Positions 2,305-21,479 of a stretch of 64,000 bases of DNA are shown here, piece by piece. Numbering within the stretch: position 1 is the stretch's first letter; each line of letters opens with the position of its first letter. Source of the stretch: an uncultured Actinomycetes bacterium (lineage in GTDB: Bacteria; Actinomycetota; Coriobacteriia; Coriobacteriales; Atopobiaceae). Position numbers and translations under genes: made by a program. The notes beneath the pieces were generated by a model. That model saw nothing but the letters and a program-made list of their open reading frames with translations. It was not told where the DNA came from and did no database searches. The stretch spans positions 4,893 through 68,892 of the forward strand of contig OMWB01000010.1 of the NCBI GenBank assembly GCA_900314645.1, read 5' to 3'.

Positions 2305-2391
2305 TCCGATAGCGGAGGCTTCTGTCTGGATTGGCTCGCGCTGGGCGCATCGTCCCCGTCACCTTCGTCGCTAACCCCATCAGCATCCCCT

Positions 2392-3343: not shown

Positions 3344-3398
3344 GCTGCACTCCCTTCTCCTTTCCTCGTGATCCGCCTAAGCCCCGAAGGGGGCGGGG

Positions 3399-3581
3399 CT
3401 ACAGCAGCCCCGCCTGTTTTCTGATGACCTGCGCGGTGATTTCGTCTATCTCCGCGTGTCGAGGAACCGATATCGAGCGCAACCCCGGCTTCATAAACTT
3501 GTCGTGCGGACCTTTCGTCCGCTTGACCTTTGTCCAGCCGGCCTCAATCAGTTCCTTTTCGAGGTCTCGCTTCTTAGGCAT
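3399..3581 (-). CDS. hicA: HicA-family mRNA interferase toxin
   Basis: 60 aa. KKRDLEKELIEAGWTKVKRTKGPHDKF...SVPRHAEIDEITAQVIRKQAGL is the classic HicA/YcfA pattern. RBS taggaggtga precedes the start. Confidence 0.85.
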   Translation of the reverse strand: MPKKRDLEKELIEAGWTKVKRTKGPHDKFMKPGLRSISVPRHAEIDEITAQVIRKQAGLL

Positions 3582-3672: not shown

Positions 3673-3789
3673 TGGACTCGGGTGTTGGTCTTCTGTCTAG
3701 CGGCGTTGTGCGGCGCGGCTGCTGCCATCGTCTTCATGCGGTGTTAGCGTCAGACACGGAGAGGTAGGGGCCGGAGCCGCTGTCGCACC

Positions 3790-3943
3790 CCCTCATGCGA
3801 ATGCTGACATTACGCGGCCGATTTCGGTCAACAACAGCTGGAAGAGCGGGGTGGGGGCAGACGCTCTCCCACACCGCTTTTGAGGCGGACGCCTCCCAGC
3901 CCAACAGGACGTTTCTCGGCAGGTTTTAGTCTGATTGGGCTGG
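3790..3943. repeat. Composite repeat: family M unit plus family F hairpin
   Basis: ccctcatgcgaatgctgac-N-ggtcaacaacagctggaagagcggggtggggg, followed by ggacgtttctcggcaggttttagtctgattgggctgg. Confidence 0.65.
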
Positions 3944-4141
3944 ATTCCCGCTCAACCGGACATCCTCGTCCCATCCGGGGTTTACCACGGATGGGATGCT
4001 GCGACAGCCACCCTGTCCCCAACGTGCGGGCACAGCAGCACGTCTCGCAAAGAGGCGCTTGCCTCACGAGGTCTATGGGATATGATTCCTAGCATATATG
4101 TGCAGGCGGGGAACGCGAGTCGGCGATACCGCCGGAGTTCG

Positions 4142-5203
4142 ATGGGGATGGCCATGAAAGCTAAATCTGCAACAGGCCGCTTGTTGGCAGCGTTTTTGCT
4201 GGTCTGCCTACTGGGCGCTGCGGTGCTGTTCGTCCGCACAACTGGAGGGTCTACCGATCCAGGCCAAGTGATTCCCGATGAGGCGGAACACGCCGTGCAG
4301 ATCTTCGTCGAGTGCAAGGAGAATCTCAAATTCAGCAGGTATGACGTCGACGTGGAGCTGGACGGGGAGAAGATCGGCACCGTCGAGCACGGCGGCGCGC
4401 AGGCGTTCGAGCTAAGCCTCTCCATGGGCCAGCACGAGCTCGTATTCGTGAAGGAGGGCGCCTCCGAGCCTGACGGCAGGGCATCCTTCGTGGTGAAGGG
4501 CTGGGGCGACGCGTTCTCCTACCTGATTAGCTGCACGGAGGACCAGATTGGGGTCGAGGCAATCGGGGACGAGGCGGAGCCCGCAAAGGAGGAGCCCGCA
4601 AAGGAGGAGGCTACTAAGGAAGAGCCGCCTGCGGAGGAGGCGCCTACGGTTGAGGCCAAGGAAGACCCACCTGCGGAGGAAGCCACCAAGGAGGAGCCGC
4701 CAGCAGAGAAGGAATCCACTACGGAGGAGCCTGCCAAGGAGGAGTCGCTTTCGGAAGAGCCGAGGCACGCCGTGGAGCTCCTCGTGGACTGCGAGAAGAA
4801 CGTCAAGTTCAGCAGGTACGACGTCGACGTTGATGTCGACGGGGAGAGGGTCGGCACAATCGAGCACGGCGGCAGGGCGACGTTCGCGCTGAGCCTCGCC
4901 GAGGGCCAGCACGAGCTCGCGTTCAGGGAGGCCGGCGAGGCCGAGCCTGAGGGCAAGGTGGACTTCGTGGTGGAGGGCGAGGGCGATAGCTTCTCCTACG
5001 AGATCCACTGCACGAGGAACAAGATCAAGGTCGAGCCGACGACGCGAAGGAGGAGCTCGTCAAAGACGAGCCGAGGCGCGCCGTGGAGCTCCTCGTGGAC
5101 TGCGAGAAGAACGTCAAGTTCAGCAGGTACGACGTCGACGTGGAGGTCGACGGGGAGAGGGTCGGAACAATCGAGCACGGAAGCAAGGCGACGTTCGCCC
5201 TGA
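4142..5203 (+). CDS. Membrane-anchored protein with repeated beta-rich domains of about 95 aa and a Pro/Glu-rich linker. Reading frame is lost near 5038.
   Basis: MGMAMKAKSATGRLLAAFLLVCLLGAAVLFV is a signal anchor. Domain copies (VECKENLKFSRYDVDVELDGEKIG... and VDCEKNVKFSRYDVDVDVDGERVG...) are separated by an EPAKEEPAKEE linker. After KIKVEP the ORF continues as an unrelated Arg/Ser-rich sequence. Confidence 0.6.
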   Translation: MGMAMKAKSATGRLLAAFLLVCLLGAAVLFVRTTGGSTDPGQVIPDEAEHAVQIFVECKENLKFSRYDVDVELDGEKIGTVEHGGAQAFELSLSMGQHELVFVKEGASEPDGRASFVVKGWGDAFSYLISCTEDQIGVEAIGDEAEPAKEEPAKEEATKEEPPAEEAPTVEAKEDPPAEEATKEEPPAEKESTTEEPAKEESLSEEPRHAVELLVDCEKNVKFSRYDVDVDVDGERVGTIEHGGRATFALSLAEGQHELAFREAGEAEPEGKVDFVVEGEGDSFSYEIHCTRNKIKVEPTTRRRSSSKTSRGAPWSSSWTARRTSSSAGTTSTWRSTGRGSEQSSTEARRRSP

Positions 5204-5397
5204 GCCTCGCCGAGGGCCAGCACGAGCTCGCGTTCAGGGAGGCCGGCGAAACCGAGCCTGAGGGCAAGGTGGACTTCGTGGTGGAGGGCGAGGGCGATAG
5301 CTTCTCCTACGAGATCCACTGCACGAGGAACAAGATCAAGGTCGAGCCGATCCACTGCACGAGGAACAAGATCAAGGTCGAGCCGATCGGGGAGTAG
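5083..5397 (+). CDS. Third copy of the same 95-aa domain, in a different frame. Probably the 3' part of the preceding gene, separated by a 1-nt frameshift.
   Basis: ELLVDCEKNVKFSRYDVDVEVDGERVGTIEHG...SFSYEIHCTRNKIKVEP is nearly identical to copy 2. Ends with a 36-bp tandem duplication (5314-5349 and 5350-5385). Confidence 0.55.
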   Translation: MELLVDCEKNVKFSRYDVDVEVDGERVGTIEHGSKATFALSLAEGQHELAFREAGETEPEGKVDFVVEGEGDSFSYEIHCTRNKIKVEPIHCTRNKIKVEPIGE

Positions 5398-5432: not shown

Positions 5433-5830
5433 CTTCATGCGAATGTTGACATCCCAAGGCCTTTCTCGGTCAACAACAGCTGGAAGAGCGGGGTGGGAGA
5501 GAGCGCACACCCTCCTGCCAATCCGGACGTTTCTCGGCAGGTTTTGGTCCGAATGAGTTGGCCCCCCGCCCAACCGGTCGCTCCAGCTCCCTCAATCGTC
5601 CAGTTGAGCAGGTTCTCCGCCCATCCGGACGTTTGGAGCCCCCCGTTCGACTGATTGCGCTGGTTTCCCGCCCAACCGGACGTTCCAGCCCTCCCGTTCG
5701 ACTGATTGAGCAGGTTTCCCGCCCGACCAGACGTTCTGGGCCCCGCTTGGCCCGATCGGCCCCCCACCCATTGCGAATGTTGACCTAAACGGCCGCCGTC
5801 GAAACGTCAACAACAGCCGGTCCCAGCCCC
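5433..5830. repeat. Composite intergenic repeat block: M unit, F hairpin, 4 x 51-bp tandem repeat, M unit
   Basis: M unit at 5433-5500, F hairpin at 5519-5560, and M unit at 5766-5820. The anchor ccgcccaaccgg/ccgcccatccgg recurs at 5566, 5617, 5668 and 5719, a period of 51. Confidence 0.7.
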
Positions 5831-5893: not shown

Positions 5894-8308
5894 ATGGCCC
5901 AAGAAGCTCACATCAAACCCGACGACTTCGAAGCCCGCTATGAGCAGGCACGCGATGTGTACCAAGCAAAGGACTATGATGCGGCCTACCAACAGCTCCT
6001 TCCGCTTGCCCGCGCGGGACATGCGAGGGCGCAGCAGCTTGTAGGGTACATGTGCCGGAAGGGATGGGGCGTCCAGCAGGATTTCAGCCGCGCGTTCCTC
6101 TGGCTTTCTCGTGCAGCAGACCAGGGACTTGCCTCCTCGATAACCCAGCTTGGCATGATGTTTGACGAGGGCGAAGGCGTGCCTCAAAACTACAGGCGCT
6201 CCCATGCCCTTTACGTCGAGGCGGCAAAAAAGGGAAATGCGCTCGCCATGGCCAAGGCGGCCGAGGACTACGTGGGCTCTTGGGGGACATATAAGGACGC
6301 GTTGTACGCGCTCGAATGGTACACCAAGGCTCGTGATGCTGGACGGCAGTCCGCCTCGGAGAAGGTCGCCGAGGTAGAGGCCTTGATTTACGAACCTAAG
6401 GTGGAGATCCCAGAGGGCATGACAGCCGAGCAGTTCGTCGCAGACCTCGAGCAACGCGCGCGTGACAAAGACGTGGACGCTTCCTTTAAGTTGGCGCTCT
6501 GCGAGCGAGACGGCATCGGCACTGAGAAGCAGATGCAGTTTTTCCTCGAGCAGGTGGTCATTGCGATCAAGATGGAGAGCAGTGACGCCATGGACATGGC
6601 AAGGCGCCTAGGCAGCGAAGTCTTTGCGCGCTATGCCTTCGGTTACTACCATGCCAAGCGGTACGTGTGGGCGTGGCACTTCGCGGATGTCGCAGCAGCT
6701 TTGGGTAACCCGGACGGCAATTTTGTGAAGGGAGTACTCAAGTATCTCGGCCATGAGGTCGAGAAGGACGAGGCGGCGGGGATCGAGTACCTTCGCAAGG
6801 GCGCCGAGAAGGATTCTGCCAGAGCGTGCTTCTTCTATGGCAGGGTTTTCCTCTATGGGGAGGAGGACCAACGCGACGATGCCGAGGGCATGCGCTGGCT
6901 GTGCAGAGCCGCCATCCTCGGTGAAGAGGAGTCTGCCAAGCAGGTCATGGAGAGGATCAAAAAGGGTGAGTATGAGCTAGAGCCCGGGCAGGCTGGCGTC
7001 TACGAAACCGCGGCGCGCGCGGGTGATGGGGAGGCGCGGCGACGCCTTGCCCTGGAATACGAGCGCAGCAGTGATGACAGCTTCAGGGATATCTGCAAGG
7101 CGGCCCTTTGGTTTGAACGCGGTGTCGCTGCGGGCGATAAGGACGCGGACGATTGCCTCTCTCGGGTGTATGCCTCCGACCAGTGGAATGATGACGACAC
7201 CTTGCTGCCGCCTGCCCGGTATGGCAAGGCCGCTGAGGACGGTTGTGGCTTTGCGATTCAGCACCTTGCCGAGGCGTATCTTGAGGGCGTCGGTGTGGAG
7301 CAGGACAAGGCGAAGGCCGCCCAGCTCTTTGTGAAGGCGGGCAACGCCGGTTTGGGCGAGGGCTTTTACCGTGCCGCGTGCCTGTATAGCGAGGGCGACG
7401 GCGTGCGCAAGGATCCCGCGTGGGCGGTTTCGCTGCTCAGGAAGGGTGCCGAGCTCAAGAATGCCGACGCGCAGTATGCGTTGGGGTGCGCCTACCGCGA
7501 TGGCATAGGTGTCTCGCGAGATGTTCTCAAGGCGGTTGATTGCTTCTTTGACGCGGCGGAACAGGGTCACGTGAAGGCGCTTGCGGCGGATGCATATCTT
7601 GTCGAGGTCTACCACAAGCCGGAGGTCGCTCGCGAGCATGCCGAGATGGCCGCCCAGCTTGGCGATTCGGCCGCCAAGCTGCTCATTGCGCAGAAGAAGC
7701 TTGTGGGCAGTGCGTATGACGTTGACGCGCAGGATGCGCGCGGGCGGTTCGAGGAGCTTGCCGCGGAGGATTGCGAGCTCGCCTGCTACGCGAACCTCTT
7801 CCTCGGCGTGATCTATCTGAAGGGGCTTGGGGTCGAGGCCGACCTCTCGAAGAGCGTGGAGCTGCTTGTGCTTGCGGCAGATCAGGGCAGCCCTGCTGCC
7901 GCGCAGATCCTCGATGACCTGCATTTGGCGGAAGGGGAGGCCATCAAGGAGCGCTATCAGAAGGAATTCGAAAAGCATTATCGCGATCAGAAGTATATGG
8001 ATAGAGTCCGCGAGGAGCTTAGTCATCGGTTGATTCCCAGCGTTGATGAGGGCTGGTCCAAGCGTGCGAGCGACCTTGCGGCGGAGCGTCCGGACCATGC
8101 GAACTATGAGCTGCTGCTGGATAAGGTGTACGAGCTTGGCGAGAACCGCTACGACGCCAAGAAGCGCAGGGCAATGCTCTATGAATACGGCTATGTCAAG
8201 GTCATGCAGGTGAAGACGCAAAGGAATCGACACGGTAACTGGCGCTTTGACGGGGCAACTGACGCTGAGGTGATGTCGTTCCTGCGGTCAAGGGGGCTCG
8301 TGAAGTGA
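5894..8308 (+). CDS. Sel1-like repeat (SLR/TPR-family) protein, 804 aa
   Basis: Many Sel1 signatures (AQQLVGYMCRKGWGVQQDFSRAFLWLSRAADQG, QLGMMFDEGEGVPQNYRRSHALYVEAAKKGN, AQYALGCAYRDGIGVSRDVLKAVDCFFDAAEQGH). RBS gggaggggga precedes the start. Confidence 0.85.
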   Translation: MAQEAHIKPDDFEARYEQARDVYQAKDYDAAYQQLLPLARAGHARAQQLVGYMCRKGWGVQQDFSRAFLWLSRAADQGLASSITQLGMMFDEGEGVPQNYRRSHALYVEAAKKGNALAMAKAAEDYVGSWGTYKDALYALEWYTKARDAGRQSASEKVAEVEALIYEPKVEIPEGMTAEQFVADLEQRARDKDVDASFKLALCERDGIGTEKQMQFFLEQVVIAIKMESSDAMDMARRLGSEVFARYAFGYYHAKRYVWAWHFADVAAALGNPDGNFVKGVLKYLGHEVEKDEAAGIEYLRKGAEKDSARACFFYGRVFLYGEEDQRDDAEGMRWLCRAAILGEEESAKQVMERIKKGEYELEPGQAGVYETAARAGDGEARRRLALEYERSSDDSFRDICKAALWFERGVAAGDKDADDCLSRVYASDQWNDDDTLLPPARYGKAAEDGCGFAIQHLAEAYLEGVGVEQDKAKAAQLFVKAGNAGLGEGFYRAACLYSEGDGVRKDPAWAVSLLRKGAELKNADAQYALGCAYRDGIGVSRDVLKAVDCFFDAAEQGHVKALAADAYLVEVYHKPEVAREHAEMAAQLGDSAAKLLIAQKKLVGSAYDVDAQDARGRFEELAAEDCELACYANLFLGVIYLKGLGVEADLSKSVELLVLAADQGSPAAAQILDDLHLAEGEAIKERYQKEFEKHYRDQKYMDRVREELSHRLIPSVDEGWSKRASDLAAERPDHANYELLLDKVYELGENRYDAKKRRAMLYEYGYVKVMQVKTQRNRHGNWRFDGATDAEVMSFLRSRGLVK

Positions 8309-8510
8309 CCCATTGCGAATGTTGACCTAAGCGGTCGCTGCCTTCGGTCAACAAGAGCTAGAAGAGCGGGGTGGTGGAGCAGGGTCTCTCCCGCCTAGCT
8401 TTTGTTTTATTCCATCCGGACGTTTCTCTGCGTCTTTTGGTCCATTTGAATCGGCGCTTCTTTTGCGATTGTTGACATTGCAAGGCTATTTCGGTCAACA
8501 ACGGCCTGAG
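8309..8510. repeat. Composite repeat: M unit, F hairpin, M unit
   Basis: Starts immediately after the stop codon. cccattgcgaatgttgac...ggtcaacaagagctagaagagcggggtgg, then tccatccggacgtttctctgcgtcttttggtcc, then ttgcgattgttgac...ggtcaacaacgg. Confidence 0.7.
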
Positions 8511-8605
8511 CCTGACGCATCAAAACGGGCACCCAGGCTGTCCCATCCAGTGCGCTCAACGCCCAATGCGTCAATACCGGTGCTTCATACGTCCGGTCGG
8601 GAGCC

Positions 8606-8815
8606 CCTCCTACCGGCGGATGTTCTTATTTGGAACATTTGCCCGCGTGTGTCTGAGACGGGTTTTGGGGTACCCGGCACCCTTGATCGGACACCTCTCC
8701 TACCAGTGGATGTGCGAATTTGGAACATTTCTTGCGCTTTCCGCCGCTGAGCTTGAGGTGCGTGGATCCGCGTACGGGCGCCTCTTCTACCAGCAGATGT
8801 GCTAATTCGGAACAT
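8606..8815. repeat. Three dispersed copies (period about 88 bp) of a 35-bp motif: cctcctaccRgYggatgtKc..atttggaacat
   Basis: Copies at 8606-8640, 8696-8730 and 8781-8815. Confidence 0.6.
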
Positions 8816-8939
8816 CCTCACGCGCGCCAAGAGATGCCCCACCCCCTTGTCGCGCAGGACCTCGACAGGTATGGGGCGGGAATGCCACCCATCGCGAATG
8901 CTGACCCAGACGTCTGTTATTCGGTGTTGCTTTCTGCTG

Positions 8940-9185
8940 TACGGATACAACAGCTACCGCGCGACGAACGTCCAGGGCTTCATGAGGCGCGTGAAGGCGA
9001 AGGGTATCCCCGTGCTTGTGTGCGACCCGACGATGACTGACGATGAGTTCTTCGAGGCCGAGGTTACGCACGACCTAGGGCGGTTCAAGCAGAGAGCCAA
9101 CGTGATCGTGGCCAGCCGCTGGGGCGACTAGCTGTCGGACGTCTCGGGGAAGGTGTACGTGCGGGATCTGTTTAGAGGGGGCTGG
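8940..9185 (+). pseudogene. C-terminal remnant of UDP-glucose 6-dehydrogenase with an in-frame stop
   Basis: YNSYRATNVQGFMRRVKAKGIPVLVCDPTMTDDEFFEAEVTHDLGRFKQRANVIVASRWGD-stop-LSDVSGKVYVRDLF matches the Ugd C-terminus. The 5' boundary abuts a degenerate M unit (8885-8955). Confidence 0.7.
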
Positions 9186-9299
9186 GGCTTCGGGACGCGG
9201 ACGCTTCGCGAATGGCTTGGCGGGCCTGGACTGTTGTCTAGGTAAGGCCCGGCGCGATTTGCGGTGAGCGCATGGCCGTGGATTGCGTGTCGCGCTTTT

Positions 9300-9736
9300 T
9301 TGTGCCTCTCGGCGACCTCCTCCGCGGGCCCCGTCCTCGCCTCGAGCTCTGCGACGACCTGCACCTTCTTCTCGGTGGGGACCGCCTCCGTCCTGGGGTT
9401 CGGCCCACGGCGCCTTCGCTGGCCGGGGGCGATCTCGTCTATCCAGTCGCCCAGCACCTCGCGGCTCTTCGGATACCCCAGCGCCCTCATCGTGCGCGCC
9501 AGGCGCTTCCCATGGCTCAGGTAGTGCTCGACGGCCTCGCGCCTCATTTCCAGGGTGTACTTCGGCTCGCGCTCGTGCTTGGGGACGGGCACCTCACCCG
9601 TCTCCATGTATTCGCGCCACCAGTTTCTCAGCGAATGCCGGTCGGGGTAGCCGAGCTCCGCTATCGTGTCGGCGTAGCTATGGTCGAATCTGATGAATGT
9701 CTCTATCGCGATTCTTCTCTGCTCCTTGCTGTACAT
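9300..9736 (-). mobile_element. IS3-family transposase OrfA remnant (HTH part only; no OrfB)
   Basis: MYSKEQRRIAIETFIRFDHSYADTIAELGYPDRHSLRNWWREY...TLEMRREAVEHYLSHGKRLARTMRALGYP...KKVQVVAELEARTGPAEEVAERH. Beyond about 9300 the ORF reads through unrelated DNA antisense to the ugd remnant. Confidence 0.6.
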
Positions 9737-9993
9737 GCGGCGTCCTTCCCGTTCCGATTTGGTCCAGGATTACCACCGCAGTCCCGATGGTACTGTGGTG
9801 AGACAGGCAAACACTACCAACCGATTTCTCGTCTCGTTTTCCAGTCTCACAATTGGGCCTCTCGGCTTGCGCAGGCATCATCCCCGGTCATTTGACTGAC
9901 CAGTGCGAAGGCAGGCGCACCGTTACTCCGCGCCTGTCGAGCGGCCTTCTGCTATAGACTGTCATCTGGGTGTAGTTCCACAGCGGGAGGGCC

Positions 9994-11595
9994 ATGATGA
10001 TGGATGAGGAACTTGGCGTCAACGAGATGGAGCTTCGGCAGGAGATTGCCTTTGGCATGAGGCTGAAGCAGCTAATCGGCAACCCAGGTGAGCAACAGCA
10101 GCAGACTATCCAAAAAAACCGGGATGCTATATTCGACCTTTTGAACGAAACGGAGGTTTTCGAGGGGCTATCTCATCCCCTCGATGATATCGGCAGCTAT
10201 GCTCCAGGTGGGCAGAACGTGCCGCCCGTGGCCCATTATGTAAGCAAAGACGGCAACCACTCGTTCGTTCTGCTGCTGACCGATGCGAAGTCTGAGATCG
10301 TCAGCACCGCAATTAGCTCGCTCCCAGACAAACTGGCGGCATCCAGAAAGACGGTCGTTTTTTTGGGCCTTCAGGACCCTGAGCTGGACAGGGCAAAGAT
10401 GAACGACGCCGTGAAGCGCAGGTTGGGCGAGGGGTCGAAGGTGCCGAGTCGCTCCGTCATGCCCTGGCGATACCTTCAGGTCTACGACATACTTACGAAG
10501 GTTCCAAAAACGTCGACCTTCGGGCCGCCGTCGCTTGCGGTGCACCCCAGGGACACCTCGTTGCTGGTCGGAAACGGTTTGAACCAGCTGAACAATCACG
10601 ATCGTTCGTGGACTGACATCTTGAACCACTTGGTGACGGTCAACATCCCCGCCGCGGGCCAGGCTGAAGCGACTGATTTCGTCGACGATTGCACGATACC
10701 GTCTCCCATGAAGTTCGAGTACCTTGCTACCCATTCCGGTGGCAGCTTCATAGGAGCAAATGCGTTCGGCAAGCTCAAGGATGACATCGCCAATCTCATG
10801 GTGGTTGGTGCCTCGGGCTTGAACCTTCCACCAGCCAACATTCAAGCCCTTCTAACGAGCCGCGATGTGGACAACCTTCTGACCACAAACTACGATCTTG
10901 TGCTCGAACGCTGCTTTAGCGCGCCGACGCGCCCGGTGAGCGAGACCAAGTACATACTGCTTCCGACCACCTACGGTGCTGGGGAAGTGCCCAGCATCTA
11001 TCACGTACACGGCATAGCTGGCGTCGGAAGGAACTCCACCATATGCCTTGGGTACGAGCATTACATGGGCTACATCCAAAAGATGCGCGGCAGGCTCATC
11101 AAGGACCAGCGTCGCAAGGAGTCGGCGAAGAGGATTGTCTTCTTGCTGCTGGGGATTGTTCCGCCAAGCCTCACGTGGGAAGAGCTGTTCTTCACTACGG
11201 ACATGTACATCGTCGGCCTTGGACTGGACTTTGAAGAGACGGACCTCTGGGAGCTGCTAACCCTACGCGCCGCAGTCCTTAAAACCAGCAGCACGCTTCA
11301 GAGACTTGGACTTCCGGAGGAGTCATACACAAACGCCATTGTCTATTACGATATCGAGGTTCCTTGTGATCCGTCCGAATACGATGACAAGACTGACGAG
11401 TACATTGATGTCGCCAAGCGCATTCGCCATCTGGCCACGCCGGTTATGGATGACAACTACTGGCTGCCTATACCAAACAAGAAGGGCAAGGCAAAGTCTC
11501 TAAAGGGGCTGGGCGTCGAGGTGAAAGTGGTGCATACGGACAACTACGAGCGGGGATACGAGATGATCCTGCAGGATATCGCTGCCCGCCCGTAG
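9994..11595 (+). CDS. SIR2-family (SIR2_2-like) protein with an uncharacterised N-terminal domain of about 190 aa. Candidate NAD+-consuming defence effector.
   Basis: Ordered SIR2_2 motifs: LLVGNGLN...SWTDIL (GxG loop), LLTTNYDLVLE, IYHVHG, MYIVGLGLDFEETDLWELL. A sampled 60-mer has 48% GC. RBS gggaggg precedes the start. Confidence 0.75.
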   Translation: MMMDEELGVNEMELRQEIAFGMRLKQLIGNPGEQQQQTIQKNRDAIFDLLNETEVFEGLSHPLDDIGSYAPGGQNVPPVAHYVSKDGNHSFVLLLTDAKSEIVSTAISSLPDKLAASRKTVVFLGLQDPELDRAKMNDAVKRRLGEGSKVPSRSVMPWRYLQVYDILTKVPKTSTFGPPSLAVHPRDTSLLVGNGLNQLNNHDRSWTDILNHLVTVNIPAAGQAEATDFVDDCTIPSPMKFEYLATHSGGSFIGANAFGKLKDDIANLMVVGASGLNLPPANIQALLTSRDVDNLLTTNYDLVLERCFSAPTRPVSETKYILLPTTYGAGEVPSIYHVHGIAGVGRNSTICLGYEHYMGYIQKMRGRLIKDQRRKESAKRIVFLLLGIVPPSLTWEELFFTTDMYIVGLGLDFEETDLWELLTLRAAVLKTSSTLQRLGLPEESYTNAIVYYDIEVPCDPSEYDDKTDEYIDVAKRIRHLATPVMDDNYWLPIPNKKGKAKSLKGLGVEVKVVHTDNYERGYEMILQDIAARP

Positions 11596-11781
11596 CGCCC
11601 GATGTGTGAGAGTGGGCGGCTTGTGCAGGTGTATGCTTGTGGTGCTCGGTAGAGCAGGCCCTGCGTGGCTGACTTGGGTGGAACAAAGCTGGGTTCCCGA
11701 ATGGGAGTAGGCCGTTTGGCTTAGAATCCCCTTGCTCCTGGGGTCAGCTATGCAGGGTCTTTCTTTAGTTCAAGCTTGAGC

Positions 11782-12633
11782 CTATTCTCCATCGGGATGG
11801 GCTGCTGCGCTTGATTGGCCCCCGTCCGTCTTCGCAAGGGGTTCGCCTTTTCCTCTACGGGAGGGAAGGGCGGAACATATGGACTCGAACAACCACGAGG
11901 CAAACGATGTGATGCCACTGCCAAACCTGGATTCAGGCACCAGTCTGCGTATTTTGTCCGTGGCCCAGAAGTACGCCAAGAAGCAGAAGAAGAGGGAGAG
12001 GAAGCCAAGCGCGGTCCACGCCCGGGCTGGCAGCAGAAGGGAGCCGTCACCCTGCAAGTCTTTCACGACCGCATTCAATAGCTTACCGTTCACAATGAAG
12101 ACTATGGCCGACAGCGCTCCCAGCATCATTCCGCCCAAGGTGCAGTGGCGAGCCCTAGAGATGATCTCGCTTGCGGCGTCAAGATTCTCTTTAGTGGCCT
12201 CGTTTATATCGAGCCGAAGCTGCATCTCCTTTTTGGCCAACTCCTCTTTTGGAGTTGTTTCATTCACGCTGGAGAAGATGGTCTTTAGTTCGGGGATGCG
12301 AGGTCTTACGCAGTCAATTACCTTGAGTAGCAGCGCCAATGCTAGCACGAGAAGCCCGTTTGCAAACATCAATACACTCAAGCAACTAGAGTACCGGGGA
12401 TAATCAATATCCGAGACGGCGCTGGGGAACGCCCCCGCAATGAAGTCCATCTCGAAGAGGAACACGAAGGTTATGACAAGGGACATGAAGTTCGCGCTCT
12501 GCAGCACGGCATCCTGCTTGTTCTCTCGCTGTTCTTGTTCGAGGGCTAACAGATGGCTGCGATACTCAGTAAGACTGATGCCGTCCGTGCTACGCTCAGC
12601 TCCCTCACGCTTCGCATGATCAACGGTATCCAT
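11782..12633 (-). CDS. Hypothetical 4-TM membrane protein, convergent with the SIR2 gene
   Basis: RBS ggaggg 5 nt before the ATG. TM pairs (FMSLVITFVFLF / VLMFANGLLVLALALLL and GGMMLGALSAIVFIV / WTALGFLSLFFCFLAYFW) are separated by a charged helical segment. Lower GC, like its neighbour. Confidence 0.7.
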   Translation of the reverse strand: MDTVDHAKREGAERSTDGISLTEYRSHLLALEQEQRENKQDAVLQSANFMSLVITFVFLFEMDFIAGAFPSAVSDIDYPRYSSCLSVLMFANGLLVLALALLLKVIDCVRPRIPELKTIFSSVNETTPKEELAKKEMQLRLDINEATKENLDAASEIISRARHCTLGGMMLGALSAIVFIVNGKLLNAVVKDLQGDGSLLLPARAWTALGFLSLFFCFLAYFWATDKIRRLVPESRFGSGITSFASWLFESICSALPSRRGKGEPLAKTDGGQSSAAAHPDGE

Positions 12634-12796
12634 TCATCCCTCCAGATCATCGACCTAGATTCTGTTTGCGCAAGACCAACCACACCCTCATTCTGTCACG
12701 GCGTCGCTGTGAAACAAAGCCTCTGTTCGTTTGATCTTCCGCCGAAGGTGATGGGCGGAGGGCGCCCCTTGCGTCGAGCTTGTCAGATGGCGCGAG

Positions 12797-12892
12797 CTGT
12801 GCGCAGAATTGGTCGGTTATCTCCCGTGCTGTGCGCACAACCGGTCGGATAAGGCCCGGATTTCTCCGATAACCGACCGTCTGTGCGTACAG
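12797..12892. repeat. Mirror array, family D: 2 direct plus 1 inverted 25-bp units, direct-copy period 31 bp
   Basis: ctgtgcgcagaattggtcggttatc (12797), ctgtgcgcacaaccggtcggataag (12828), and inverted gataaccgaccgtctgtgcgtacag (12868). Confidence 0.65.
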
Positions 12893-12959
12893 TCTAGGAC
12901 GGCGATGCCTTCTCGCCTCGTCGATGCAGCTCTCTTTGTCTGACATAGACTAGGTTTCC

Positions 12960-13088
12960 TCACCAGGCCGCTTGTGCATCGCCGGATTTGTCCTTTGACG
13001 CCGCGATTGCTTTCGTTGGCATATAGCAGATGCAGAACGCGAGGAGCAGTACGTGAAGGACGGTGAGGGCGGTGCGGCTCTTCTTCAT
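12960..13088 (-). CDS. 42-aa signal-peptide-like small ORF. Either a secreted peptide or the orphaned 5' end of a surface-protein gene.
   Basis: MKKSRTALTVLHVLLLAFCICYMPTKAIAASKDKSGDAQAAW, with RBS aaggag 9 nt upstream. It is the tail of listed ORF 12960-13742. Confidence 0.3.
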   Translation of the reverse strand: MKKSRTALTVLHVLLLAFCICYMPTKAIAASKDKSGDAQAAW

Positions 13089-13177
13089 CGTGGCCCATCT
13101 CCTTTGGAGGTGCTGATTGACTCCATGGTAGTCTTCTGGGCGATGCGCGCGCCCCGTGGCTTGTGACGTGCGAGGTT

Positions 13178-13241
13178 GGTGCCCGCACTTTGCGTCGTTA
13201 GCAGCGCGATTTCGAGCTCCTAACGTCGCGAACTGCGGGCA
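13178..13241. repeat. Hairpin element, family H (gtgcccgcaSttYgcgWcgNtaRSagc arms)
   Basis: 26-bp imperfect inverted arms around a 12-nt loop. Relatives at 14439-14503 and 23922-24046. Confidence 0.65.
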
Positions 13242-13271
13242 AATGCAGCCACTGCCCATTGCGATTGTTGA

Positions 13272-14240
13272 CACTACGGAGCCGGCAAGCCCCTCGAGCC
13301 CGAGGTGACGGTCTCCCTCGCGGGGGTCGAGCTCAAGCAGGACGTTAACTACGAGCTCTCCTTCTCCAACAACATCAACGCCGGCACCGCGACCGTGACC
13401 GCGACGGGCAAGGGCGGCTACGTCGGCTTCAAGGCGGCGACCTTCCAGATCGCCAAGGCGAAGCAGACCGTGACGGCTTCCAACAAGAGCGTGGCTCTCG
13501 GCTCGACGGTGAGCCTCGGTGCCAAGGCGAGCGGCGGTGGCAAGCTGACGTACAAGTCGTCTAACACGGCGGTGGCGAAGGTGAGCGCTAAGGGCGTCGT
13601 CACGCCAGTCAAGGTCGGCACCGCCAAGGTGACCATCACGGCTGCGGGGACGGCCAACTACCTGCGGGCCACCAAGACCGTCACGGTCAAGGTCACGGCG
13701 CTGAGCCTCTCCAAGGCGACGGTGGGCAAGATTGCGGACCAAAAATACGACGGTACGGCAAAGAAGCCGACGCCGACGGTGAAGGTGGGTGGCCGGACGC
13801 TCAAGAAAGGCACTGACTACACGCTCACGTACAAGAACAACCTGCAGGCTGGAACTGCCACGGTGACCATCAAGGGCAAAGGGAAGTACTCGGGCAACAA
13901 GTCCGTTACCTTCAAGATCGTGGCCATGGCGGGGACCTGGAAGAAGAGCGGGTCGCGCTGGTGGTACGAGTGGAAGGACGGTGGCTACCCGGCCAACGTC
14001 TTCCTCGACATCGACGGCAGCACCTACCGCTTCGATGCGAGTGGCTGGATGCTGACCGGCTGGCAGCAGGTTGGTGGCAAGTGGTACTACTTCGGGTCCA
14101 GCGGCGCCATGGTGAAGTCCAAGTGGGTGGGCAACTACTGGATGGGCGCCGACGGTGTGATGGCGACCAACGCCTGGGTCGATGGCGGCAGGTACTACGT
14201 CGGCTCGGACGGAGCCTGGGTGAAGGGCAAGACAAGGTAG
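13272..14240 (+). pseudogene. 5'-truncated surface protein: Ig-like repeats, Big_2-like domain, cell-wall-binding (GW/YYF) repeats. No signal peptide.
   Basis: The frame opens directly after a partial M unit (13253-13272) in the middle of a repeat (..YGAGKPLEPEVTVSLAGVELKQDVNYELSFSNNINAGTATV). Also contains LTYKSSNTAVAKVSAKGVVTPVKVGTAKVTITA. The C-terminus is WWYEW..GWQQVGGKWYYF..WVKGKTR. Confidence 0.6.
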
Positions 14241-14262: not shown

Positions 14263-14378
14263 CTGCAGGTGGATTGCTACGGTTAAGAGGGGACTGCAGG
14301 TAGATCTGTACGGTTGAGCCGCGATAACCGTACAGATCTACCTGCAGTCCCTTGCTATCCGTGTGAATTCACCTTCAG
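14263..14378. repeat. Mirror array, family C: 2 direct plus 2 inverted 25-bp units, period 31 bp
   Basis: ctgcaggtggattgctacggttaag and ctgcaggtagatctgtacggttgag, then the inverted copies taaccgtacagatctacctgcag and tatccgtgtgaattcaccttcag. The central pair forms a perfect 22-bp stem. Confidence 0.7.
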
Positions 14379-14438: not shown

Positions 14439-14503
14439 GGTGCCCGCACTTTTCGCCGTTAGCAGCCCGTTTTCGGGCTCTTAGCGGCACAATCTGCGTG
14501 CAC
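14439..14503. repeat. Family H hairpin element
   Basis: ggtgcccgcacttttcgccgttagcagccc...gggctcttagcggcacaatctgcgtgcac. Confidence 0.6.
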
Positions 14504-14545
14504 GTGCCGCCGCCGGTGCGTATCGGTCCTTACCGCAGCCAACCC

Positions 14546-15163
14546 CTAGAGTGCGAACTGCCTCACTAGCAGTCCAGCGGCTGCCAAGACCATCAGCAGG
14601 AGTATCCAGTGGTTCCTCAGGAACCCGCCGCCGACGTACACCTTGCCGATTCGGTACAGCGACTGAATGATGCCGCTGCTGTTCGCTATCGCAGCCAGCT
14701 CGAGCGCGGGGATGCCCGTCTCGACGGCTACCCGGTCGAACAGCGCGGTGCCCTGCCGGCTCTCGATGCCTTCCATGGCGGCCAGCGTCCACTCTTCCAG
14801 CGGAGTCCTCTCCCGGCCCTTGATGAAGTTGATGCGTCGAGTCTGACACCCCACGATCACCCGGCCTACGCCAAAGACGATGAGGCCAATCGCCATGGTG
14901 CCAACTGACCAAAATGGCGAAAACAGCAGGCTGGTTCCGCCAAGTCCCGCACAAACCGCGGTCGCCACCAAGAGCGGAATGCTTCCCCAGACCAGGTCAA
15001 GACCGATGAACATGAGCCTGAAGCCCCTGCTGAGCTCGCTTTTTATGACCTCGGCGGGCGGCGTGACCTCTTCTTTGTCCACTTTCTGTAGGGCCCTGAA
15101 GACGAAAAACGTCGGGACCCCGCAAAGCACCGCCACAATCAGTATCGATATCAGCGTCACCAT
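14546..15163 (-). CDS. Hypothetical multi-pass membrane protein
   Basis: 205 aa. RBS aaggaag precedes the start. Hydrophobic N-terminus (LISILIVAVLCGVPTFFVF), central TM cluster, C-terminal TM (WILLLMVLAAAGLLV). Confidence 0.6.
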   Translation of the reverse strand: MVTLISILIVAVLCGVPTFFVFRALQKVDKEEVTPPAEVIKSELSRGFRLMFIGLDLVWGSIPLLVATAVCAGLGGTSLLFSPFWSVGTMAIGLIVFGVGRVIVGCQTRRINFIKGRERTPLEEWTLAAMEGIESRQGTALFDRVAVETGIPALELAAIANSSGIIQSLYRIGKVYVGGGFLRNHWILLLMVLAAAGLLVRQFAL

Positions 15164-15291
15164 GCTTGGCTTCCTTTGCCCTCGTTGCGTGCCTTGAAGC
15201 GCGAATTGTGTTAACGGGGTTACATTTTAGTACATGCCGGACATTCAGGACGGAGGCTTCTGTCCGGGATGGCTTGGTGCGAGCGCGGCGG

Positions 15292-15360
15292 TGGAACGGC
15301 ATTGCATTTCGTACCGCTGTTTCAGCTCTCGACCCGCGGTACCAAACCGAATAACGTTCC
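15292..15360. repeat. Family A repeat pair (1 direct plus 1 inverted 26-bp unit)
   Basis: tggaacggcattgcatttcgtaccgc and gcggtaccaaaccgaataacgttcc. Confidence 0.6.
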
Positions 15361-15373
15361 CGCCTCGACACCA

Positions 15374-15504
15374 CCCCTTGGCGAATGTTGACATCAGGAG
15401 GTCCCGCCAGGTCAACATCAGCTGAAGGACGGCACGAAAGCAACCCTTCTTCAAGCTGGTGTTGACCTGGCGGGACCTCCTGATGTCAACATTCGCCAAG
15501 GGGT
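15374..15504. repeat. Full palindromic dimer of family M (two 50-nt arms, 1 mismatch)
   Basis: ccccttggcgaatgttgacatcaggaggtcccgccaggtcaacatcagct (15374-15423) and its reverse complement at 15455-15504. Confidence 0.8.
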
Positions 15505-15597
15505 CAAGCCAATGTTGACCTGCCAAGCCCTTCTCCCTCCACAACAGCTGCTAGGATTGACATGGCGATGACCTGCGACTCATTGGAGGCTCCAACC

Positions 15598-16053
15598 ATG
15601 TCTGCGGACCCACGCGTACACTTCATCGAAGGCGCCGACGTCGACGAAGCCCTCGGCCCAGCCGGACGCGTCTACCTGTCGGGCCACCTCGAGCGCCCGC
15701 AGCCGCACTTCGACCACATCGGCGACCTCCCCGACCCGACGGAAGCGGGAATCACCAGGTACGCCGAGCTCACGGTGGACCAGCCGCACCTGCACGAGCT
15801 CAACACCGACTTCACCTACGTCCTGCGCGGCGCCTACGCGGTGCGCATCATCCCCACCGGGGAGGTTCGCGTCCTTGGGGAGGGCGGGCTGTGCGTCATC
15901 GAGCCCGGCCTCGCGCACGTCTGCATCGCGAGCCCGGGCACCCAGGTGATCTTCTTCAAAGTCCCCGGCGGCAACGACAAGGTCCCCGTCGAGCTGGACG
16001 GCACCTCGCGCGACTGGGTCGAGGCCTACTGCGCCACCTTCCGCCAGTCGTAA
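15598..16053 (+). CDS. Cupin-domain protein
   Basis: HLHELNTDFTYVLRGAYAVRI..GE...GGLCVIEPGLAHV fits the two cupin motifs. RBS ttggagg sits 8 nt before the ATG at 15598. Confidence 0.55.
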   Translation: MSADPRVHFIEGADVDEALGPAGRVYLSGHLERPQPHFDHIGDLPDPTEAGITRYAELTVDQPHLHELNTDFTYVLRGAYAVRIIPTGEVRVLGEGGLCVIEPGLAHVCIASPGTQVIFFKVPGGNDKVPVELDGTSRDWVEAYCATFRQS

Positions 16054-16141
16054 AAACGGTCCCTCATCATCACGCTCCACCGCCATCGGCCACGCCCTAC
16101 AATGGGAAGCCACGCAAAAGCGGCTACAAGGGGAGCGGAAG

Positions 16142-17002
16142 ATGGAGAAAAGCCAGGCGGTTGCAGAGATCAGGACCGTATTCGAGCGTGACGAGATCAT
16201 AGAGTACAACCCGGAAGACGTGGTGGAGAACGGGGACGCGCCGTTTTGCGCGGGCGTCTTCTACACCAGGCCGGGCCCGCGCGGCGACCTGCTGTGTGCG
16301 GGGGATCTGCGCGCGGAGGGCTCGCCGCCCACGCACGCGACCCTGCTGAACCTTGAGCAGCTCGTCGACATCACCTACGCATTCGTGGGCGAGGAGGGGC
16401 TGGAGATCTACTTCGAGCTCGGGGGAGATGGGGTGATCACGCACCAGGTCCGCTGGTCGTGCTCCGAGCCCGACGCCGAGACCTTCAGGCCGACGTGCTC
16501 GGAGGTCGACATCGCCTCGCTGGACACCCACAGGCGCTACCACGGCGCCTACGGCATGAGCCTGATGGAGACGCTCGCGAATGGCTACCACACGCCCAAC
16601 GTGCAGATGGCCATCGAGGAGCAGTTCGAGCACCACTTGTTCGGCAAGCGCCAGTACCCTGACATCCGGGCGCTGGAGGCCTTGGAGAAGTGCCTGCGCG
16701 CTGACGTGCTGAAGGGCGTGCAGCGCAGCGCCATGCAGTACGCGCTGCTCTGCCTGCACGGGAGCGAGGACGCGCGCTGCGTGTTCGACCGCGACATCGC
16801 GGTGCACCACGCGCTCGTGCTCGAGGGCGTACCAGCGCTGATAAGGGATTGCCTCGCGTACCACTGCTCCTGGAGGGACGTGTATGGCGGGGTGTCGAAG
16901 GCGCTGCTCGACATCGACGGGCTGGTGATTTCTGGGGAGTTGCGCGACGACTACGAGGTGACGCGCTTCGACCTGGAGTGGATTGACCGCGACGACGCGT
17001 GA
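16142..17002 (+). CDS. Conserved hypothetical protein, paralogue of 22021-22923
   Basis: 286 aa. RBS aagggga precedes the start. Collinear with the second copy (VFYT.PGPRGD.L.AGDLR, HTPNVQMAIE.QFE.HLFG, RSAMQYALL.LHGS, EGVPAL...CLAY.C.W). Confidence 0.7.
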   Translation: MEKSQAVAEIRTVFERDEIIEYNPEDVVENGDAPFCAGVFYTRPGPRGDLLCAGDLRAEGSPPTHATLLNLEQLVDITYAFVGEEGLEIYFELGGDGVITHQVRWSCSEPDAETFRPTCSEVDIASLDTHRRYHGAYGMSLMETLANGYHTPNVQMAIEEQFEHHLFGKRQYPDIRALEALEKCLRADVLKGVQRSAMQYALLCLHGSEDARCVFDRDIAVHHALVLEGVPALIRDCLAYHCSWRDVYGGVSKALLDIDGLVISGELRDDYEVTRFDLEWIDRDDA

Positions 17003-17037
17003 GGCCGCCTGTCTTCTCCCGCTGATTGATTTGCCCC

Positions 17038-17408
17038 CTACTGCGAATGTTGACAAAAACCGCCTGTTTTCGGTCAACATCAGCTGGGGCTGAGCGTGGA
17101 GGTGGAACGCCATTGCGTTTCGTGCCACTCTCGAGGTCCTGCCTGGAACCTTATTCCGCTTGGTGCCACTGTCCGAGCCCTATCTGGAACACTATTGCGT
17201 TTCGTACCACCGTTTCGGCCCTCAATCCGTGGTACCAAACTGAATACCGTTCCAGCGCCCACCCCAGCAGTGGTACCAAACTGAATACCGTTCCAGCGCC
17301 CACCCCAGCAGTGGTACCAAACTGAATACCGTTCCAGCGCTCAATTGCCCTGCACGCATCCAGCTCATTCGGACGTTTCCCGGCGCCTTTTGGTCCGATT
17401 GGGCTGGG
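17038..17408. repeat. Composite: M unit, family A mirror array (3 direct plus 3 inverted 26-bp units, period 41 bp), F hairpin
   Basis: M unit at 17038-17086. Direct units at 17103, 17144 and 17185. Inverted units at 17229, 17270 and 17311. F hairpin at 17362-17408. Confidence 0.8.
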
Positions 17409-17411
17409 CCG

Positions 17412-18278
17412 TTAGCGCTGCGGCAGGGGGATCATCACTATGGCGGTGAACACCCCGTTGCGCTCCTCAAACTGGGTAATCCCGCCGTGCCCTCGGGCGA
17501 TGTTCGTCACGATGTCGGTGCCCCATCCATGCTCGCGAAGCAGGCCGCCACGTCGGGCCGCGCCTCGCGCCTTCGCGGCCTCCGCACGGCAGGGATTGGC
17601 CACCTCGACATACAGCTGCCCCGCCTGCACCATGGAACTCACGCGCACGGTGGGGAGACTCTCAACCTCGCTGCCCTCCAGCATCGCTTCGCACTCGTGC
17701 AGCGCATTGTCGATGAGGTTGAAGAACACGGCGGCAACCTCAACATCAGGCAGCGGCAGCTCTTCAGGCAGCTTGACGTGGTGCTCAAACCCCACGCCCG
17801 CTTCGTGGCACTGGCGCTCCTTGGTCTCCAGTACCGCGGCGACTGGCACGTTATCGCAGTAAACCGTGCGCGTCTGAGACGCAATGTCCAACCCTTGCCG
17901 CAGGTGCGCGCTGGCGTCCCCGGCCTGACCCTGGTTGAGTGCCTCGCGTGCGCGGGCAAGCTCCTGGTCGACGGCACGTCCTACCTCCCGGGCGAGCGTC
18001 TGCTCGCGCTCCGTGGTGATGCGGTAGCTCTCCAGCGACCGCTCAAGCTGCGTGCTGACATCGGCGGCGTAGGCGGCCTCGGCGCGCTGCAGCGCCGCGA
18101 ACAGGTACTGCACGACGCCGGCGTCGATGACGGCAACGCCCACCGCGGCGGCAAGCGTGACGACGAGGTCGAGCGTTCGCGAGTCCTCGGGCGCTAGCGC
18201 GTGCCAATACCAGAGCAACGCAAGCTGGAGGGCATAAAACGCGCAGGTCAGCGCGATGATGACGCGGCGTCTGTTCAC
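17412..18278 (-). CDS. 2-TM protein with a long helical linker (H-box histidine absent) and a C-terminal GHKL ATPase domain of the AgrC/SpoOB-type kinase class
   Basis: N-box FFNLIDNALHE and G-box REHGWGTDIVTNIARGHGG. The linker ...LAREVGRAVDQELARAREALNQGQAGDASAHL aligns with the DHp of the three upstream paralogues but has no His at the H-box position. Its GTG start overlaps the upstream stop (GTGA). Confidence 0.75.
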   Translation of the reverse strand: MNRRRVIIALTCAFYALQLALLWYWHALAPEDSRTLDLVVTLAAAVGVAVIDAGVVQYLFAALQRAEAAYAADVSTQLERSLESYRITTEREQTLAREVGRAVDQELARAREALNQGQAGDASAHLRQGLDIASQTRTVYCDNVPVAAVLETKERQCHEAGVGFEHHVKLPEELPLPDVEVAAVFFNLIDNALHECEAMLEGSEVESLPTVRVSSMVQAGQLYVEVANPCRAEAAKARGAARRGGLLREHGWGTDIVTNIARGHGGITQFEERNGVFTAIVMIPLPQR

Positions 18279-21440: not shown

Positions 21441-21479
21441 GCACCACTCCAAAACCGGCAGTTTCCCCTGCGTCAGGGT

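Follow-up and report, generated by a model that had tools for sequence, protein, structure and literature searches.

Among abortive-infection effectors, SIR2 NADases are a major class; the systems built around them differ in how infection is sensed. In ThsA of the Thoeris system (PDB 6LHX, 7UXT, 8BTO/8BTP), an N-terminal SIR2 domain is followed by a C-terminal SLOG (or Macro) domain, which binds gcADPR from ThsB. KomC of the Kongming system (PDB 8ZSF, 9XVC) is a bare SIR2 of 264 residues that requires KomB and the dITP signal; it has been described as a ThsA-like SIR2 that forms filaments on activation (PMC13454610). DSR1 and DSR2 are one-gene systems with sensor and SIR2 NADase in a single polypeptide. 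DSR2 comprises about 1000 residues, its N-terminal SIR2 domain being followed by a large C-terminal helical-repeat sensor for the phage tail tube protein. What is new in the locus described here is a SIR2 protein with an N-terminal sensor candidate; the architecture originates from Atopobiaceae of the gut, which have been little studied.

The window, i.e. the whole stretch of 64,000 nucleotides that was analysed, contains on the forward strand a complete open reading frame (9994..11595) for a two-domain SIR2_2 (SIRim) protein of 533 residues, which would constitute the whole defence system proposed below. Both this frame and the convergent one for a 283-residue membrane protein (11782..12633, reverse strand) are located where the original prediction had placed them. 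Reading the sequence further revealed a Shine-Dalgarno-like GGGAGG (9985..9990, forward strand) directly 5' of three in-frame ATG codons at 9994, 9997 and 10000; a homologue with 94% identity (P0001) was called from the second of these. The GGGAGG lies within the 54 nt upstream of the SIR2 ATG (from 9940) that the window has in common with a 97%-identical strain contig (L016). The gene is under purifying selection, with dN/dS values of 0.21–0.47. Because of these values and the Shine-Dalgarno sequence, it is considered intact. Scans for promoters and terminators around the gene yielded counts no better than those of shuffled sequence.

The C-terminal two thirds of the protein (residues 186–533; 10549..11595, forward strand) form the SIR2_2/SIRim catalytic domain. 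The match to Pfam SIR2_2 (PF13289) reaches 29.6 bits at a gathering cut-off of 24.5, and all four motifs quoted in the original prediction are present, namely GNG at position 193 (G193-N-G195), TTNYD at 297 (T297-T-N299-Y-D301), HVHG at 337 (H337-V-H339-G340) and IVGLGLDFEETD at 406. Conservation of the SIR2 columns was read from alignments of 10 and 58 sequences. T297, N299, Y300, H339 and G340 are invariant among the 58 homologues, and G193/N194/G195, D301 and H337 are conserved to at least 90%. With the full protein as a single sequence, a search of the PDB gave 0 matches and a profile was required; the family profile matched ThsA (7e-5), FAM118B and KomC, and its TTNYD and HG motifs were aligned with the N112/H152 region of ThsA. 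The AF2 model of the protein has a pLDDT of 90.6 and a pTM of 0.91. According to DSSP it contains nine strands within residues 187–514, SIRim proteins being characterized by a Rossmann sheet of at least seven strands. The best 42 matches of the model in a Foldseek search of the PDB are all anti-phage NADases (ThsA, KomC, DSR2, Avs5 and SIR2-HerA). The protein clearly belongs to this anti-phage branch (SIRim/SIR2_2), apart from the housekeeping sirtuins, as had been anticipated.

By sequence profile as well as by structure, ThsA is the best match to the window protein, and both share the SIR2_2 fold and the aligned GxG, TTNYD and HG motifs. The likeness may extend to function, that is, to an NAD+-depleting abortive-infection effector that stays switched off as long as its sensor domain is not engaged. 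In contrast to ThsA, the SIR2 domain of the window protein is C-terminal and is combined with an unrelated N-terminal domain. A SLOG/Macro domain is not contained in the protein; the sequence of the extra domain matches nothing in Pfam or the PDB, and its fold signal is weak and REase-like instead. There was no TIR match and no TIR/ThsB gene nearby, the neighbours being Sel1, an IS remnant, the membrane protein gene and the gene of a choline-binding protein, and the PADLOC models of ThsA matched the SIR2 protein with an E-value of 5e-3 only. KomC has the highest target-normalised TM-score (0.68–0.70 over the SIR2 core). Unlike KomC, the window protein possesses an extra domain of its own, and no homologues of KomA or KomB were seen beside it. 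The structural match to DSR2 has an E-value of about 3e-6; here the window protein differs in its length, in the C-terminal position of SIR2, and in its sensor candidate, a small N-terminal alpha/beta domain. The original prediction had listed no SLOG, HerA, STAND or Argonaute partner, and none is found beside the gene. HerA ATPase, pAgo (APAZ), STAND NTPase and KomA/KomB are absent from the SIR2 protein and its neighbours in the window, and none of them is conserved beside its homologues.

The best PADLOC match is the candidate system PDC-S25 (E = 4.5e-6, 24 bits), a single gene of similar length with a profile of 517–528 positions. The match comprises just residues 285–341 around TTNYD, which align with profile positions 132–185 of 517, whereas the remainder of the profile, including its N-terminal part, does not align with the window protein. 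The PADLOC matches to PDC-S25 and ThsA being weak and partial, no validated system covers the SIR2 protein. NCBIfam contains no model that matches either the SIR2 protein or the membrane protein. Literature searches on PDC-S25, on the combination of SIR2 with Type III, with BREX or with Hma, and on REase-like N-terminal domains with SIR2 yielded no description of the architecture; a paper on S. thermophilus deals with SIR2-HerA only.

The SIR2 core begins at about residue 186, which leaves 185 residues (9994..10548, forward strand) for a family-specific domain with a proposed sensory or regulatory role. A domain of about 190 residues without assignment had been predicted, and indeed none of the 10 family members gave a Pfam match below E = 0.1 in this part, while the profile of the domain had 0 matches in the PDB and 0 in PHROGs. 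An exhaustive search with this profile detected six matches in 1.84 billion representative proteins, every one of them fused to this SIR2; the sensor candidate is thus seen nowhere else in this collection. The fusion is monophyletic. The N-terminal domain evolves faster than the SIR2 core (pN 0.41 versus 0.25), as is expected for a sensor.

The model of the domain (pLDDT 77.8) displays an alpha-beta-beta-beta-alpha-beta topology that fits the PD-(D/E)XK core. The top five Foldseek matches in the PDB are EcoO109I (two chains), EcoT38I and NucS/EndoMS, and the matches in BFVD include the Rpb5 N-terminal domain, VRR-NUC, nucleases and a Res subunit of Type III; all are weak, with E-values of at least 0.007. 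The matches are consistently PD-(D/E)XK proteins, yet their TM-scores are just 0.3–0.36. Conserved D...(D/E)xK residues were not found, D97 being replaced by H or N and K99 by R, N, L or V within the family. Judged from the model, the domain weakly resembles a restriction-endonuclease-like fold that would be catalytically dead; should this fold be correct, it would not be that of an active nuclease, because the positions of D97 and K99 vary.

As had been predicted, homologues of the SIR2 gene occur in defence islands. Their neighbours include Kiwa (L001), a PDC-S60-like Metallophos protein (L008) and two PDC-S31 genes (L009); the homologue on L021 lies in a polysaccharide locus, where none of its neighbours can be recognised as a defence gene. 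A tblastx comparison of the full-length loci identified the SIR2 gene as the only common element, except for Sel1 in the window and L001 and for the pair L009/L012, which is from the same organism. This argues for a single-gene system, although the family comprises only about 10 protein clusters and the statistics on its neighbourhoods are thin. The nearest relatives in sequence are short SIR2_2 genes (~300 residues) with 31–37% identity over residues 187–529, which share the blocks GYEHYxGY and DLWxLL with the window protein. They are located inside Type III R-M, BREX, Hma and Lamassu loci (L013, L045, L038, L068, L025), and no publication describing them was found. In contrast to the stand-alone window protein, they have no N-terminal domain and are parts of multi-gene operons in which start and stop codons often overlap. 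In a tree of SIR2 cores, the sister group consists of short SIR2s from Atopobiaceae that are linked to Type III and Hma.

The locus is probably a single-protein abortive-infection NADase defence system with a novel sensor domain. The family relationship, the motifs and the fold suggest NADase activity and an anti-phage role for the SIR2 gene. Residues 186–533 would be the effector, a SIR2_2/SIRim domain consuming NAD+, against which the N-terminal 185 residues are predicted to pack, probably keeping the enzyme silent in the absence of an infection cue. A phage protein or foreign DNA may serve as this cue. Activation would deplete NAD+ and stop the infected cell before phage release; it may involve oligomers or filaments such as those of ThsA, KomC, Avs5 and FAM118B. 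The gene itself is accessory cargo that was inserted beside IS elements in a variable hotspot, which is rich in defence genes and lies downstream of a conserved Sel1-repeat gene; the membrane protein and Sel1 genes would be neighbours rather than components. The sensor role of the N-terminal domain, its fold class and the mode of activation are likewise what we infer.

A more far-reaching version of this proposal may be put forward tentatively, although it is the less probable one. The N-terminal domain could be a nuclease-dead, REase-like DNA sensor that replaces in cis what the short sister SIR2s receive in trans from the R-M, BREX or Hma machinery. The whole clade would then be a hitherto unrecognised class of NAD+-depleting 'second-line' effectors coupled to the discrimination of self and non-self by DNA modification, with the window protein as the form that is fused and autonomous. 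If the link of the short SIR2s to Type III R-M, BREX and Hma operons is functional, NAD+ depletion would be tied to methylation-based immunity in a testable layered defence.

Not all SIR2_2 enzymes simply hydrolyse NAD+; some of them ADP-ribosylate targets or produce signalling molecules. The window enzyme might likewise use NAD+ in another way, to modify a target by ADP-ribosylation or to produce a signal, or else be an addiction or toxin module of a mobile element and not an anti-phage protein. The SIR2 superfamily does include ADP-ribosyltransferases (SirTM), the FAM118 proteins have been termed 'NAD processing' (PMC12700824), and IS elements flank the gene. On the side of the Sel1 gene these are represented by an IS3 OrfA-like remnant between SIR2 and a remnant of ugd (9128..9736, reverse strand; NCBIfam transpos_IS3 with 40.9 bits over profile positions 1–85 of 369 only, Pfam HTH_Tnp_1 with 22.9 bits), in place of which strain contig L016 carries an IS256-type transposase. 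However, the close structural matches are all NAD+-depleting defence effectors, and relatives are found in defence operons. Hardly any relatives are carried by plasmids or phages either; collections of both contained just four weak partial matches, and a plasmid or phage origin is not evident. No tRNA integration site is near the locus, the sole tRNA lying at 41972. On the whole, another use of NAD+ or a role as an addiction or toxin module is unlikely.

A partnership with the Sel1 gene (5894..8308, forward strand; Pfam Sel1, 1.6e-50) is quite unlikely. According to this explanation, the 804-residue helical-repeat protein would sense a phage protein, like the C-terminal repeats of DSR2, the SIR2 protein would be the effector, and in the window IS debris would have separated the two genes of the operon. 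Sel1 precedes SIR2 on the same strand both in the window, with a 1.7-kb insertion, and in L001, where Sel1 is 75% identical and SIR2 follows next after a gap of 264 bp. The two loci have nothing else in common around these genes, and both families are very rare. Yet Sel1 orthologues with 74% identity (L063–L066) are followed by other cargo and not by SIR2, no Sel1 accompanies the SIR2 homologues of L007, L008, L009–L012 and L021, and PADLOC has no match for Sel1. Moreover, the dS of Sel1 is 0.47 whereas the adjacent SIR2 genes are saturated (pS 0.75), which indicates separate histories of the two genes. The orthologue contigs that lack SIR2, together with this dS comparison, rule out Sel1 as an obligate partner; as an accessory partner it is possible but unlikely. 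Sel1 is instead the conserved anchor upstream of a variable hotspot, and the region downstream of it is a defence hotspot worth mining. Synteny with the Sel1 loci that lack SIR2 ends at the C-terminal remnant of ugd (UDP-glucose dehydrogenase; 8943..9176, forward strand), which resembles a UDPG_MGDP_dh_C fragment in L063 (tblastn, 67% over 78 residues); the blastn match of the window to L063 and L064 stops at 9183. The IS3 OrfA and ugd debris described in the original prediction for one side of the island is thus present.

The original prediction combined the SIR2 gene with the convergent membrane protein gene to a candidate defence module. In such a two-gene module the membrane protein could be a co-sensor or an effector, either SLATT-like or pore-forming. 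This is highly improbable. The predicted layout itself was found, with four hydrophobic segments (about 45–68, 84–106, 165–187 and 205–225) in two pairs that are separated by a charged stretch. The genes are adjacent, only 187 bp apart and both of lower GC, and contigs from at least five metagenome samples show them in the same order. These contigs (L015–L020), however, are 93–98% identical to the window and are the only ones in which the pair is adjacent; together with the window they are one lineage and provide no independent evidence for the pair. Orthologues of the membrane protein gene with 74% amino acid identity (L002–L004, L006) follow a gene for an 851-residue protein and an EAL gene in contigs without SIR2, and no such gene lies beside the SIR2 homologues of five other lineages (L001, L007, L008, L009–L012, L021). 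Each gene is thus found elsewhere without the other. Positions 12966–13284 of the window correspond to 8343–8660 of L006 with 88% identity, and the membrane protein gene is inverted relative to L006. Next to it lies what is left of a gene for a 415-residue protein, namely its first 25 codons (13014..13088, reverse strand; tblastn, 84% over 25 residues); L006 has this gene in intact form. The truncated gene and the inversion show that a rearrangement brought the membrane protein gene beside SIR2. In addition, the membrane protein has no family match in PADLOC, Pfam or PHROG, and convergent genes cannot form one operon. Given the missing co-occurrence, the module is largely refuted; the membrane protein is not supported as a partner and appears to be an unrelated bystander.

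That the protein is a housekeeping deacylase of the sirtuin type has a practically negligible probability: it falls in the SIR2 superfamily and SIRT1 appears in the Foldseek list, but only at rank 44 with an E-value of 1.6e-2 compared to 2e-7 for ThsA, defence NADases being ahead of sirtuins by 4–5 orders of magnitude; its Pfam match is SIR2_2 while SIR2 (PF02146) is not listed; its gene is a rare, accessory one that is carried in a hotspot; and it lacks the zinc-binding Cys tetrad, whose absence is part of the SIRim definition (bioRxiv 10.1101/2024.09.18.613514; PMC12700824), as it contains four Cys residues (233, 307, 351, 458), three of them not conserved, and no CxxC.

Three further features of the surroundings had been described correctly at least in part. 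HicA is encoded at 3399–3581 (reverse strand), about 6.4 kb from SIR2 and close to the predicted 6 kb; next to it is the gene of an HTH_17 protein. Repeats do exist on the far side of the island, but they code for the Ig-like repeats of the choline-binding protein, and the true intergenic array, with a period of ~88–90 nt, is located on the Sel1 side of SIR2 (8597–8817). The lower GC of the SIR2 gene (GC 0.554, GC3 0.70) and of the membrane protein gene (0.545 and 0.655) is real but modest compared to a GC of 0.608 for the whole window and to GC3 values of 0.78–0.91 for core genes. The GC3 of Sel1 is reduced as well (0.73).

The SIR2 gene (window positions 9994-11595, plus strand, 533 aa) has a GGGAGG Shine-Dalgarno sequence upstream of three in-frame ATG codons. 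Its product scores 29.6 bits against Pfam SIR2_2 (curated cut-off 24.5) and contains all motifs quoted in the original prediction, namely GNG (193), TTNYD (297), HVHG (337) and IVGLGLDFEETD (406). In an alignment of ten full-length homologues, the SIR2 core begins at LLVGNGLN, approximately residue 186. Among 58 aligned sequences, T297, N299, Y300, H339 and G340 are invariant, and G193, N194, G195, D301 and H337 are conserved to at least 90%. Comparison of the family profile with the PDB yielded ThsA (6LHX, 7e-5), SeThsA, FAM118B and KomC. The corresponding alignment pairs TTNYD and HG with one ThsA segment, the site of the catalytic residues N112 and H152. An AlphaFold2 model was confident (pLDDT 90.6, pTM 0.91). 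When it was compared with the PDB by means of Foldseek, ranks 1-42 were occupied exclusively by anti-phage SIR2 NADases, namely ThsA, KomC/HAM-SIR2, DSR2, Avs5/AVAST5 and SIR2-HerA; the first SIRT1 followed at rank 44 (E = 0.016). The gene is under purifying selection (dN/dS 0.21-0.47).

For the N-terminal domain (residues 1-185), sequence searches of Pfam, PHROG and the PDB gave no match. When 1.84 billion representative proteins were searched exhaustively with a profile, six proteins were identified, all belonging to the same SIR2 family and one being a truncated fragment. The SIR2-core phylogeny groups the carriers of this domain in one clade; the fusion therefore arose once. Modelled alone (pLDDT 77.8), the domain adopts an alpha-beta-beta-beta-alpha-beta topology. 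Its Foldseek matches are weak (E at least 0.007, TM-scores at most 0.36), yet consistently restriction-endonuclease-fold proteins: EcoO109I, EcoT38I and NucS/EndoMS in the PDB, and the Rpb5 N-domain, a Type III Res subunit, nucleases and VRR-NUC in BFVD. If this fold is correct, the domain is no nuclease, because the would-be catalytic positions vary (position 97 is D, H or N). The N-domain evolves faster than the catalytic core, with a long-range pN of 0.41 versus 0.25 and a short-range dN/dS of 0.65-0.75 versus 0.39.

The most likely reading, which we hold with moderate confidence, is a one-gene abortive-infection system that combines sensing by the N-domain with NAD+ consumption by the SIR2 domain. 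The N-domain, with its putative fold and ligand, would detect an infection cue and then release or assemble the SIR2 domain, which would consume NAD+. The gene would encode an NADase and protect against phages. Other NAD+-using chemistry, or an addiction role, is unlikely next to structural matches that are headed by defence NADases. The SIRim effector is already known; the fused N-domain and the architecture are undescribed. A further SIR2 architecture as such will not surprise the specialist. The points that merit experiment are the unique N-domain and the repeated insertion of the clade into methylation-based systems.

The SIR2 family is rare (about 10 clusters in 5.8 billion proteins) and occurs in Atopobiaceae. 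Full-length members lie in defence islands, beside Kiwa, a PDC-S60-like Metallophos protein and PDC-S31 genes, and the assignment of the gene to defence is supported. Closest to the window protein are short SIR2_2 genes (about 300-320 aa), which comprise residues 187-529 only and are inserted in other defence loci (L013 2938-8942; L014; L030; L045 8358-13583; L038 1258-8640; L035; L048; L068 1-8942; L025 9974-13790). They are found in Type III R-M operons (Mod-Res-SIR2, where stop and start codons overlap, or Mod-SIR2-Res; 16 loci), in BREX (BrxC-PglX-SIR2; 5 loci), on a TraG-bearing element directly upstream of LmuA-LmuB (8 loci) and in an Hma operon (HmaB-HmaC-HEC-07-like-SIR2). In the SIR2-core tree, the sister group of the window's clade includes Atopobiaceae Type III and Hma-linked forms. 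In the literature searched, we found no description of short SIR2 genes within Type III R-M, BREX, Hma or Lamassu loci. Many copies on the TraG-bearing element are split or truncated (214 aa + 122 aa, with a match to residues 187-392 only; L050-L059, e.g. L054 9974-11011), which suggests that the short SIR2 next to Lamassu was repeatedly pseudogenised.

A pair of SIR2 with the upstream Sel1-repeat gene would fit locus L001, where a 75%-identical Sel1 directly precedes a 51%-identical SIR2, next to Kiwa; L001 and the window locus have nothing in common beyond these genes. The Sel1 orthologues of L063-L066 are followed by other cargo, such as a Schlafen/AlbA_2 ATPase (L063 and L064) or Rce1-like and DUF7713 genes (L066); in L063, the upstream side carries an nSTAND NTPase and an Abi_2 gene. 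Sel1 is absent beside the SIR2 homologues of L007, L008, L009-L012 and L021. Between the window and L001, the dS of Sel1 is 0.47, whereas the neighbouring SIR2 genes have reached saturation (pS 0.75), which makes the SIR2 alleles older than the anchor that both loci share. Sel1 is therefore the anchor of a variable, defence-rich hotspot, and a Sel1-SIR2 pair is quite improbable. The relevant positions for the hotspot downstream of the conserved Sel1 gene are 8308-9990 in the window, 3982-9000 in L001, 1-15300 in L063 and 2760-7200 in L066. Its cargo differs by lineage: SIR2 (window), SIR2 with KwaA/KwaB (L001) and a Schlafen/AlbA_2-HATPase protein (L063); ugd fragments recur at its edges. Synteny of the window with SIR2-less loci stops at the ugd remnant (approximately 9183), and the strain contig L016 matches positions 9940-12962 only, another IS being present on its left side. 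Across the SIR2 family, none of the neighbours is conserved.

The second gene of the proposed module (11782-12633, minus strand, 283 aa) is, as predicted, convergent with SIR2, at a distance of 187 bp. Its product has the two-hairpin layout claimed for it: four hydrophobic segments arranged as two pairs, with a charged stretch between them. The two genes are adjacent only in contigs that are 93-98% identical to the window (L015-L020). In related genomes (L002-L004 and L006), a 74%-identical orthologue occurs without SIR2, behind an 851-aa gene and a gene for an EAL protein, a c-di-GMP phosphodiesterase. Over window positions 14440-18328, L002 otherwise shows 92-95% identity. The membrane gene is inverted compared with L006, and a neighbouring 415-aa gene is reduced to its first 25 codons, a scar at 13014-13088. 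The membrane protein matched no defence or phage family. A two-gene module is thus not supported and very improbable; the real functional link of the 4-TM protein may be the EAL operon. The 4-TM family is very small (5 clusters), and its gene is tandemly duplicated in L002 (288 + 265 aa); the loci in relatives are L002 6593-8798 and L006 1295-6941. Least probable is a housekeeping sirtuin: defence NADases lead the Foldseek matches, and the protein has no CxxC pair and only four scattered cysteines. It is therefore devoid of the zinc module by which canonical deacylase sirtuins are defined and which the SIR2_2/SIRim subfamily does not have (PMC12700824; bioRxiv 10.1101/2024.09.18.613514). Its SIR2 domain does not group with the housekeeping sirtuins, the first outcome that the original prediction named as refuting it.

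The predicted lower-GC island exists as a dip of modest size, the GC content being 0.554 for SIR2 and 0.545 for the membrane gene versus 0.608 for the window. The GC3 values are 0.70 and 0.66 versus 0.78-0.91 for core genes, and that of Sel1 is likewise reduced (0.73). The flanking debris is real and consists of an IS3 OrfA-like remnant (9128-9736) and a ugd C-terminal remnant (8943-9176). A HicA toxin (60 aa) adjoins a 153-aa HTH_17 protein (2882-3581, minus strand); Pfam did not detect the usual HicB. In L067, this pair is again found upstream of Sel1. Two ORFs of 271 and 239 aa at 730-2304 show the lowest GC of the window (GC 0.50 and 0.48; GC3 0.61 and 0.53) and have no Pfam or PADLOC match; the first only has a weak PHROG HTH match. 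This region is likely another foreign insert.

An intergenic repeat (period about 88-90 nt, conserved core …TTTGGAACATTT) is located at 8597-8817. Members of its family also occupy other intergenic regions of the window (2390-2440, 3764-3844 and 5436-5480) and occur in related genomes (L001 8997-9266; L006 8554-8685); the family may represent an element of REP or MITE type. Other repeats lie at 4757-5350, 5565-5736, 17229-17340 and 14263-14378. They comprise a 311-bp unit duplicated in tandem almost perfectly (1.9 copies, 96%), either within ORF 3935-5203 or after it, an array of 3.4 copies of 51 nt, a tandem repeat of 2.7 perfect copies of 41 nt and, downstream of the choline-binding gene, an inverted repeat of 53 nt. 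A 286-aa gene is duplicated: 22020-22875, about 6 kb downstream, is a diverged copy of 16142-17002 (about 73% DNA identity via L002), and the repeat-bearing spacers 17092-17338 and 21135-21445 are also related.
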